From assembly GCF_048403405.1 (NCBI RefSeq), contig NZ_CP183135.1: a DNA stretch of 64,000 bases. The stretch is one strand, 5' to 3'. The DNA comes from Escherichia coli. GTDB taxonomy: Bacteria; Pseudomonadota; Gammaproteobacteria; Enterobacterales; Enterobacteriaceae. Positions 49,738-49,797 of this stretch are shown piece after piece; the stretch's first letter is position 1; every line of letters starts with the position of its first letter. The notes beneath the pieces were generated by a model. The model searched no databases and was not told where the DNA came from. It was given only the letters and a program-made list of their open reading frames with translations. The position numbers were made by a program, and so were the translations under genes.

Positions 49738-49756
49738 CTAATGATAATTATTTACA
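49738..49756. promoter_or_regulatory. Fur box in the sitA promoter
   Basis: CTAATGATAATTATTTACA resembles GATAATGATAATCATTATC. Confidence 0.55.
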
Positions 49757-49775
49757 TTTTATAGCTTCTGCTATA

Positions 49776-49797
49776 AAACATAGTAGTTGCTATGTTT
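49776..49797. promoter_or_regulatory. MntR-type palindromic box in the sitA promoter
   Basis: AAACATAGTAGTTGCTATGTTT, inverted halves AAACATAG / CTATGTTT. Confidence 0.5.

Follow-up and report, generated by a model that had tools for sequence, protein, structure and literature searches.

Predicted Fur and MntR operators at the promoter of the plasmid-borne sitABCD operon of Escherichia coli

The sequence analysed here, a 64,000-nucleotide stretch of DNA that we refer to as the window, belongs to an E. coli virulence-resistance plasmid of the ColV/IncF type. It is colinear with plasmid p4_2_1.1 over two segments (window positions 14309-26345 and 33097-64000), and the 401 bases around the sitA promoter recur without a mismatch in about a thousand sequenced plasmids, p4_2_1.1 among them. 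Downstream of this promoter, at 49830-53279 on the plus strand, lie four genes in the order found in sitABCD-type importers: a substrate-binding protein with a ZnuA fold, an ATPase and two permeases. The first, sitA (49830-50744), codes for a periplasmic metal-binding protein, and is identified by its open reading frame and by the RefSeq annotation of an identical plasmid; the Pfam ZnuA domain (PF01297) is found in SitA relatives. It is followed by the ABC ATPase gene sitB (50744-51571), the product of which passes the NCBIfam equivalog NF011630, a manganese/iron ABC transporter ATP-binding protein, with 594 bits against a cut-off of 393. The permease genes sitC (51568-52425) and sitD (52422-53279) are again assigned from open reading frames and RefSeq annotation, the RefSeq product names in the identical plasmid being SitA to SitD. 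The region in front of sitA is the native promoter-operator of the ColV/IncF-plasmid sitABCD, an Mn2+/Fe2+ ABC importer.

An IS1 copy lies upstream of the sit promoter on the minus strand (48762-49529, a 768-bp IS1 match), and its annotated IS1A transposase (48777-49474, minus strand) is read in the direction away from sitA. A sequence-only reading of this DNA had placed the promoter about 300 bp from the end of IS1. That figure is correct for the sitA start codon, which is separated from the IS1 end by 300 bp, but the Fur box described below begins only 207 bp from the IS1 end. These 207 bp of native DNA have been retained between the insertion sequence and the Fur box, and are homologous to chromosomal E. 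coli alleles. The junction between IS1 and the promoter is identical in plasmid pS88.

The same reading had proposed that a Fur-like box and an MntR-like palindrome precede sitA. An exact string search finds both strings, each of them once in the window and at the positions given for it. The Fur-like string, CTAATGATAATTATTTACA, occupies 49738-49756 and starts 92 bp before the sitA ATG at 49830. Compared with the classical 19-bp Fur consensus, GATAATGATAATCATTATC, the top register at this site is 49737-49755, with 15 of 19 matches, a value attained by only three loci in the window. We also scored the window with a matrix built from 15 Fur 18-mers of iron-related genes (Table S2 of Troxell et al. 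2011), from which sitA was excluded; the sites in question come from fur-responsive Salmonella genes and are themselves matrix-predicted, not footprinted E. coli sites. The best register by this matrix, 49743-49760 on the minus strand, reaches 21.6 bits and ranks second among approximately 128,000 window positions. Of 300 shuffled 64-kb windows 0.7% equalled this score, as did two of 5000 sequences obtained by shuffling the local AT-rich region of 300 bp. A second register (49737-49754), which overlaps the first, has 16.0 bits, and on the combined grounds of consensus, matrix and conservation we regard 49737-49760, which includes 49738-49756, as a putative Fur operator made up of overlapping Fur-box registers, with no strand assigned. 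The register originally singled out lies 5 bp to the left of the best one and scores 14.2 bits, which 57% of shuffled windows equal, so that taken alone it is not significant.

The three top Fur loci in the window all precede iron-uptake operons, namely those of an FTR1-type permease, sitA and iucA. The first of these lies at 17198-17215, 75-92 bp before the gene for the FTR1-family iron permease, and the last at 56550-56588, directly 5' of iucA, where it serves as a positive control within the window and has a comparable score. The matrix therefore behaves specifically, the other top loci being iron-uptake promoters. The iucA locus resembles that of sitA in having two adjacent Fur-matrix hits (19.8 and 18.2 bits, against 21.6 and 16.0 at sitA); this is the aerobactin promoter, and its Fur operator sequences were treated by de Lorenzo et al. 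1987 (cited in PMC3438092). Unlike sitA, iucA has no MntR-type palindromes, and would be expected to respond to iron only.

The MntR-like string, AAACATAGTAGTTGCTATGTTT, is found at 49776-49797 and begins 54 bp before the sitA ATG. Its two 8-nt arms form a perfect inverted repeat around a 6-nt spacer, and its core, ATAGT-N4-GCTAT (49780-49793), carries one mismatch (ATAGT). This predicted operator, the proximal one, is here called O2. What had been presented as a single palindrome is however one of two in tandem, the other, at 49757-49778, having been missed. This distal predicted operator, O1 (TTTTATAGCTTCTGCTATAAAA), has a perfect core, ATAGC-N4-GCTAT (49761-49774), though its flanks are poor, and forms a perfect 9+9 inverted repeat, with arms at 49757-49765 and 49770-49778 set 4 nt apart. 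No strand is assigned to either operator. The starts of O1 and O2 (49757 and 49776) are 19 bp apart, and the Fur box, O1 and O2 together fill 49737-49797, a total of 61 bp, without a gap.

Both palindromes fit the enterobacterial MntR operator type, AAACATAGC-N4-GCTATGTTT. Sites of the ATAGC-N4-GCTAT type are present upstream of mntH, mntS, mntP and dps in E. coli K-12, and six of these (one from mntH, two from mntS, two from mntP and one from dps) were used to build a symmetrised MntR matrix; the dps site was used because we take dps to be a member of the MntR regulon. By this matrix O2 is the best site in the 64 kb, with 22.3 bits, which none of 100 window shuffles and none of 5000 local shuffles equals, so the palindrome originally pointed out ranks first. 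O1 ranks second with 15.3 bits, a value that six of the 100 shuffled windows and 22 of the 5000 local shuffles also reach. The local shuffles drew on the intergenic region (37% G+C, 5000 replicates); over the 100 window shuffles, which preserved dinucleotides, the maximum MntR score averaged 11.6 ± 2.5 bits. O2 is also identical to the K-12 mntH box, AAACATAGCAAAGGCTATGTTT, at 18 of 22 positions. Control by MntR has been described for mntH, mntS and mntP (PMC11275975). The mntR gene is annotated in E. coli K-12, and the window itself consists of plasmid DNA only.

We examined conservation by scanning species-representative genomes for SitA and taking the best 80 loci, of which 22 are from Enterobacterales; E. 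coli and Salmonella are not among these best 80, and Salmonella promoters were recovered by protein search and contig look-up. The 22 enterobacterial upstream regions can be aligned only in one block, consisting of a Fur-like box, a short CATTTAA-type linker and two ATAGC-N4-GCTAT palindromes. The order Fur box, O1, O2 is kept at the 22 enterobacterial loci from other species, in three divergent chromosomal E. coli alleles and in two Salmonella species. Of 28 enterobacterial sit promoters, 25 have a Fur box (matrix score of at least 11 bits) homologous to that of the window, which sits 70-93 bp before the sitA ATG. The spacing of the palindromes is constant: when the two best MntR hits within 270 bp upstream of sitA were recorded with their distance left unconstrained, that distance was 19 bp in each of the 26 Enterobacterales promoters (the 22 loci, the three chromosomal E. 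coli alleles and the window). No MntR-type site was detected (best score below 7 bits) in the sit promoters scanned from Photobacterium, Pseudomonas, Salinicola, Alcanivorax, Bordetella and Rhizobiales. Some sit promoters outside the Enterobacterales retain a Fur-like box.

The closest well-studied counterpart is sitABCD of Salmonella enterica SPI-1, which is the same operon under Fur and MntR control (Ikeda et al. 2005, cited in PMC3852070, PMC9315381 and PMC8970401); a Fur box followed by an MntR palindrome lies equally far from sitA in both. In Salmonella the Fur box, GCAAATAAGAATTATTTTC, aligns column for column with the plasmid sequence GCTAATGATAATTATTTAC, and contains the exact sitA 18-mer given by Troxell et al.; the Salmonella MntR palindrome, TAACATAGCAAAGGCTATATTC, aligns in the same manner with plasmid O2. 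There are also differences. O1 has lost its left half in Salmonella (ATACC, 14 bits), whereas its core is perfect in the plasmid allele, and the distance from the Fur box to O1 is 23 bp in Salmonella as against 20 bp in the plasmid. The Salmonella operon is, moreover, chromosomal (fhlA-ygbA-sitA, in the regions retrieved from S. enterica and S. bongori), whereas the copy in the window is carried by a plasmid and lies beside IS1.

Candidates for the core promoter fall within the same 61 bp. The hexamer TTTACA (49751-49756, plus strand), in the 3' part of the Fur box, is a -35-like candidate recognised from its sequence; it is 15 bp from TATAAA and 17 bp from TAAAAC. The first of these forms part of a candidate extended -10 element, TGcTATAAA (49769-49777, plus strand), which overlaps the right half of O1, and in which TATAAA is invariant across four E. 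coli alleles. This pair would predict a start site near 49784-49787, within O2. The same layout is seen in K-12 mntS, where the annotated 5' end of rybA is at the centre of the proximal MntR site and a TATAAT lies between the two sites, which supports the arrangement suggested for sitA. A scan with the sigma-70 consensus gave one candidate promoter, TTGGGA-16-GATAAT, the -35 of which is not conserved in one chromosomal allele; under this candidate both MntR sites would lie just past +1. Under either candidate, all three predicted repressor sites would touch the core promoter. The leader between O2 and the sitA start codon (49798-49829, plus strand) is identical in the four E. coli alleles at all but two positions.

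Published work on sit promoters is in agreement with the sites described above. In Enterobacteria, MntR with manganese represses MntH and SitABCD (PMC3852070), and reviews describe the sitABCD promoter as carrying MntR and Fur elements (PMC3852070 and PMC9315381, citing Ikeda 2005 and Runyen-Janecky 2006). According to reviews, Fur and MntR repress sitABCD in both Salmonella and Shigella (PMC3852070, PMC8970401). A Salmonella sitA-lacZ fusion is under the control of both proteins, such that in the absence of sigma-S the wild-type level is reached only if fur and mntR are both deleted (PMC8970401). In a Salmonella fur mutant sitA expression rises 53.8-fold, and the Fur site predicted there, CAAATAAGAATTATTTTC (PMC3212961), aligns with the Fur box in the window. 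For the plasmid allele, expression has been measured on an identical promoter: a 346-nt segment of pS88 that runs from the IS1 end through the promoter into the beginning of sitA is 100% identical to the window, and pS88 sitA responds to the iron chelator dipyridyl (200 µM) with a 17.8-fold rise in transcript, to human serum with a 49.5-fold rise and to urine with an 83.9-fold rise (PMC3438092). Plasmid sitA is likewise induced in iron-depleted medium in Salmonella with IncFIB plasmids (PMC8602916).

Taken together, the matrix scores, the order and spacing conserved in more than 20 species, the alignment with Salmonella and the identity of the pS88 promoter support dual control of the plasmid sitABCD operon, by Fur with iron and MntR with manganese, through repressor sites packed over the core promoter. 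We put the probability of this at about 85%. The proposal of dual control in the sequence-only reading is supported by these same four lines of evidence, and it is the manganese response that we infer for the plasmid allele. The mechanism would be one of occlusion, the core promoter being overlaid by three repressor sites within 61 bp (49737-49797). With iron in adequate supply, chromosomally encoded Fur of the host, loaded with Fe2+, would occupy the array of Fur registers at 49737-49760, within which the -35-like hexamer lies. With manganese in adequate supply, O1 and O2, the centres of which are 19 bp apart, would be occupied by dimers of Mn2+-MntR, and the -10 region together with the probable start site would thereby be covered. 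A sufficient level of one metal would then be enough to block RNA polymerase, and the operon would be fully on only when both are scarce, as they are in tissues of the host, in serum or in urine.

The leading alternative has O2 alone working as an MntR operator, O1 being either a decayed relic or a sequence kept since its right half, GCTATAAA, also serves as the -10 element, so that there is no cooperative tandem. O1 scores 7 bits below O2 in the window, and its left half is damaged in Salmonella, Citrobacter and chromosomal E. coli, where O2 is the stronger site: O1 scores only 2.7-14.8 bits in Salmonella and Citrobacter, and 10-12 bits in the chromosomal E. coli alleles. Its right half (80% consensus nnnnATAnCnnnTGCTAT) is far better conserved than its left, as expected for a TGnTATA -10 element. 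These weak scores indicate that O1 may matter little in some lineages. As a general account, however, this has difficulty with three features. The plasmid O1 has a perfect ATAGC-N4-GCTAT core within a 9+9 palindrome, and 18 of the 28 promoters have a perfect O1 core; O1 outscores O2 in Enterobacter, Lelliottia, Cedecea and Erwinia, reaching 22-29 bits in the Enterobacter, Cedecea and Erwinia lineages; and the 19-bp spacing is invariant and equal to that of the mntS pair. We consider a lone functional O2 unlikely, though it deserves to be taken seriously. Another alternative, an improbable one, is that Fur alone mediates repression by both iron and manganese, as reported for Yersinia yfeABCD, with MntR-type sites contributing little in E. 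coli. E. coli nevertheless encodes MntR, the match of O2 to the K-12 mntH palindrome is close (18 of 22), and among the sampled lineages MntR-type sites occur only in the sit promoters of Enterobacterales; in Salmonella, full derepression of sitA-lacZ needs the loss of both repressors (PMC8970401).

Two further readings would do without MntR altogether. One is that the palindromes act as hairpins in a leader RNA, as a manganese riboswitch or as OxyR sites. Each of them can form a hairpin when folded as RNA, and OxyR also recognises ATAG/CTAT elements; an OxyR element has indeed been named in the Salmonella sit promoter by one review (PMC9315381). Yet the folding is unremarkable (z = -1.85, with 11 of 200 shuffles folding equally well), and the core half-sites are conserved in sequence and show no covariation, the outer flanks losing complementarity (for example CCAT...TTTT and TAAC...ATTC). 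The same motif is present upstream of mntP in DNA that is not transcribed. No Rfam family, including the yybP-ykoY leader of the Mn2+ riboswitch, matches 49450-49950 at E-values up to 1, and sitABCD has been described as lacking a riboswitch-like leader (PMC9315381). As to OxyR, in its sites ATAG and CTAT must be separated by 7 nt and the period must be 22 bp, whereas the region has 6 nt and 19 bp; the OxyR pattern ATAGnTnnnAnCTAT-N7-ATAGnTnnnAnCTAT (a 37-mer) has no match in the whole window with up to three mismatches. A role as RNA structure or OxyR target is accordingly very improbable. Finally, the boxes might be chance features of AT-rich DNA to which neither Fur nor MntR binds, with regulation residing elsewhere, for instance in read-through from IS1. 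Fur-like words are common in AT-rich DNA, the intergenic region is 37% G+C, and the Fur register first proposed does no better than over half of shuffled windows. But shuffles matched to the local composition equalled the best Fur score only twice in 5000 and O2 never, and the three sites are conserved among flanks that cannot be aligned. Read-through is further opposed by the orientation of the transposase, which points away from sitA, and by the 207 bp of native upstream DNA that remain. Of an origin by chance there is, in our judgement, hardly any likelihood.

Dual control by Fur and MntR thus being the preferred reading, the result is correct but expected: such control of sitABCD is already known, since it has been established in Salmonella and Shigella, and induction under iron limitation has been measured on an identical promoter. 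Extraintestinal pathogenic E. coli, Shigella and Salmonella have in SitABCD an Mn/Fe importer associated with virulence, and dual repression by Fe-Fur and Mn-MntR explains the strong switch-on in serum, urine and host cells. The complete operator set on the plasmid copy indicates that the adjacent IS1 did not uncouple the operon from metal sensing by the host; a mobile virulence module would here rely entirely on chromosomal regulators. A comparable logic of iron-Fur and manganese-MntR control is seen in K-12 mntH, which also has its Fur box upstream of the MntR palindrome (one Fur box and one MntR box; Patzer and Hantke 2001, cited in PMC11275975). It differs from sitA in having one full palindrome and in coding for a transporter of the NRAMP family.

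Comparison with the chromosomal E. coli/Shigella-type sitABCD (Runyen-Janecky et al. 2003 and 2006, cited in PMC3852070 and PMC3212961), which is approximately 85% identical overall to the plasmid operon at the DNA level, shows where the plasmid allele departs from its relatives. Between the Fur box and the ATG, 8 of about 95 positions vary among the four E. coli alleles. The chromosomal alleles have their sites at the same positions as the plasmid, with a Fur box matching the consensus at 17 of 19 positions (15 of 19 in the plasmid) and an O2 of 28 bits. In the plasmid allele the Fur box and O2 (ATAGT) are slightly weaker, and the O1 core is perfect, not imperfect. The plasmid allele has also lost 2 bp between the Fur box and O1, and reads TTTACA in place of TTTTCA; in the chromosomal alleles TTTTCA is 17 bp from TATAAA, a distance that the deletion reduces to 15 bp in the plasmid. 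These changes in spacing and site strength could fine-tune the metal set-points.

The 19-bp tandem has its best parallel in K-12 mntS (rybA), where, as at sitA, two palindromes of the ATAGC-N4-GCTAT type lie 19 bp apart over the promoter. The paired MntR sites of E. coli mntS overlap its promoter with the same spacing as in Bacillus subtilis mneP, and cryo-EM of the B. subtilis mneP complex reveals interdimer contacts that are needed for a steep manganese response (PMC11275975). By analogy, two MntR dimers would probably bind cooperatively to the tandem at sitA and give a sharper response to manganese. The protein comparison bears on this in both directions. E. coli MntR retains R56, D59, R90 and G91, equivalent to Arg24, Asp27, Arg58 and Gly59 of B. 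subtilis MntR, but it lacks counterparts of Tyr22, Lys20 and Glu55, further contributors to the interdimer interface of the B. subtilis protein, and has E54, V52 and I87 there. Cooperative binding at sitA is plausible on these grounds. A broader proposal would be that the sitA promoter of Enterobacterales is an invariant 19-bp tandem MntR operator, cooperative and switch-like, which individual lineages tune by weakening one of the sites, and that the plasmid allele has been re-tuned so that its set-points differ from those of the chromosomal copy. We offer this tentatively, as a possibility to which we would give somewhat less than even odds. If it is true, the re-tuning would consist of a perfect core in O1, weaker forms of the O2 core and the Fur box, and the loss of 2 bp with its effect on promoter geometry, and the plasmid copy would have Fe and Mn set-points distinct from those of the chromosomal copy in the same pathogens.

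A tandem MntR architecture has been described for mntS, and in the accessible literature we found no such description for sitA; the 19-bp tandem and the plasmid-specific changes are minor refinements of the known picture that may not have been described before. The mntS pair is unlike that of sitA in that no Fur box precedes it, and its gene product is a 42-residue protein, not a transporter operon. The proximal mntS site is identical to O1 of Enterobacter cloacae sitA at 20 of 20 positions, and MntS itself is reportedly derived from the signal-peptide region of SitA (bioRxiv 10.1101/2023.06.02.543501).

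At the sequence level, the sitA promoter of the plasmid differs from the chromosomal E. coli alleles (L087-L089) at several points in and around its operators. A 2-bp deletion (window 49756-49761) lies between the Fur box and the distal MntR-type palindrome, O1. The distance from Fur box to O1 is 20 bp in the plasmid allele; of the 27 other promoters, 24 have one of 22-23 bp. The plasmid allele also carries TTTACA in place of TTTTCA, and ATAGT instead of ATAGC in the core of the proximal palindrome, O2, while its O1 core is perfect where those of the chromosomal E. coli alleles are imperfect. 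Between O2 and the sitA start codon, only two positions vary among four E. coli alleles, which elsewhere are about 85% identical.

The chromosomal copies are themselves not all alike. In E. coli, sitABCD is found at two or more chromosomal loci, 3' of uspF and 3' of ycgX/ymgL (L087, and L088 with L089), and the promoter alleles of these loci are distinct, with about 85% identity to the plasmid copy. Taken together, the different chromosomal locations and the distinct promoter alleles indicate several independent acquisitions. There is also a candidate case of loss: in the S. flexneri plasmid NZ_CP041619.1, the match to window 49500-49727 consists only of the IS1 end and the adjoining 198 bp of sit upstream DNA, ending about 10 bp 5' of the Fur box, and this segment looks like the remnant of a deleted sit locus.

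Tandem MntR-type palindromes are not restricted to sitA. The mntS promoter of E. coli K-12 (L082, 8059-8092) carries two, 19 bp apart as in sitA, and its proximal site, ATATAGCCTGTGCTATATCT, is identical at 20 of 20 positions to O1 of the Enterobacter cloacae sitA promoter. This identity and the common 19-bp tandem arrangement fit the published view of mntS as a descendant of the 5' end of an ancestral sitA (bioRxiv 10.1101/2023.06.02.543501), and suggest that the promoter travelled along when mntS arose. In the sitA promoters of Enterobacter, Lelliottia, Pluralibacter and Shimwellia (L002-L006), O1 and O2 are reverse complements of each other, the non-palindromic centre included (CCTGTG / CACAGG), so that the two sites jointly make up a super-palindrome about 41 bp long, a feature that is absent from the sitA promoter of the window.

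The operators are flanked by two further short elements. In the sitA leader, 3' of O2, a block of the form AATTT(A/T)(A/G)C(C/T)CA is kept across genera (window 49802-49814, and homologous positions in L002-L013, sitA loci of other genera); the window version is TAATTTTGCTCAC. Immediately 5' of the Fur box lies a small inverted repeat, AATCCCTGTGTTGGGATC (49711-49728), which is in part conserved among chromosomal sit alleles and was scored as terminator-like on the minus strand in a sequence scan. It may insulate the promoter from upstream transcription, or terminate that transcription.

The aerobactin (iucA) promoter served as a positive control for the Fur matrix inside the window. Two neighbouring matches (56550-56588; 19.8 and 18.2 bits, 17/19 to consensus) lie immediately 5' of iucA (ATG 56611), and are common to this gene and a divergent MFS transporter gene (55282-56475, minus strand), described as shiF-like in the pS88 paper (PMC3438092). 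The highest Fur-matrix score anywhere in the window is that of 17198-17215, with 22.2 bits and 15/19 to consensus. This match occupies the positions 75-92 bp 5' of the start codon (ATG about 17290) of a gene for an FTR1-family iron permease. The gene is the first of a putative multi-gene iron-uptake cluster including ABC-transporter genes, and the cluster is therefore probably another Fur-controlled operon of the plasmid.

Window segments 1-14300 and 26350-33100 are not colinear with the sequenced plasmid p4_2_1.1, and have IS26 and IS1 copies at their borders (for example at about 1893-2720, 7760-8527, 14116-14883, 30088-30912 and 33097-33917). By sequence comparison, these segments are a mosaic resistance region adjoining the virulence region. 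The first 864 bases of the window match the dfrA17-intI1 junction of the p4_2_1.1 class 1 integron.
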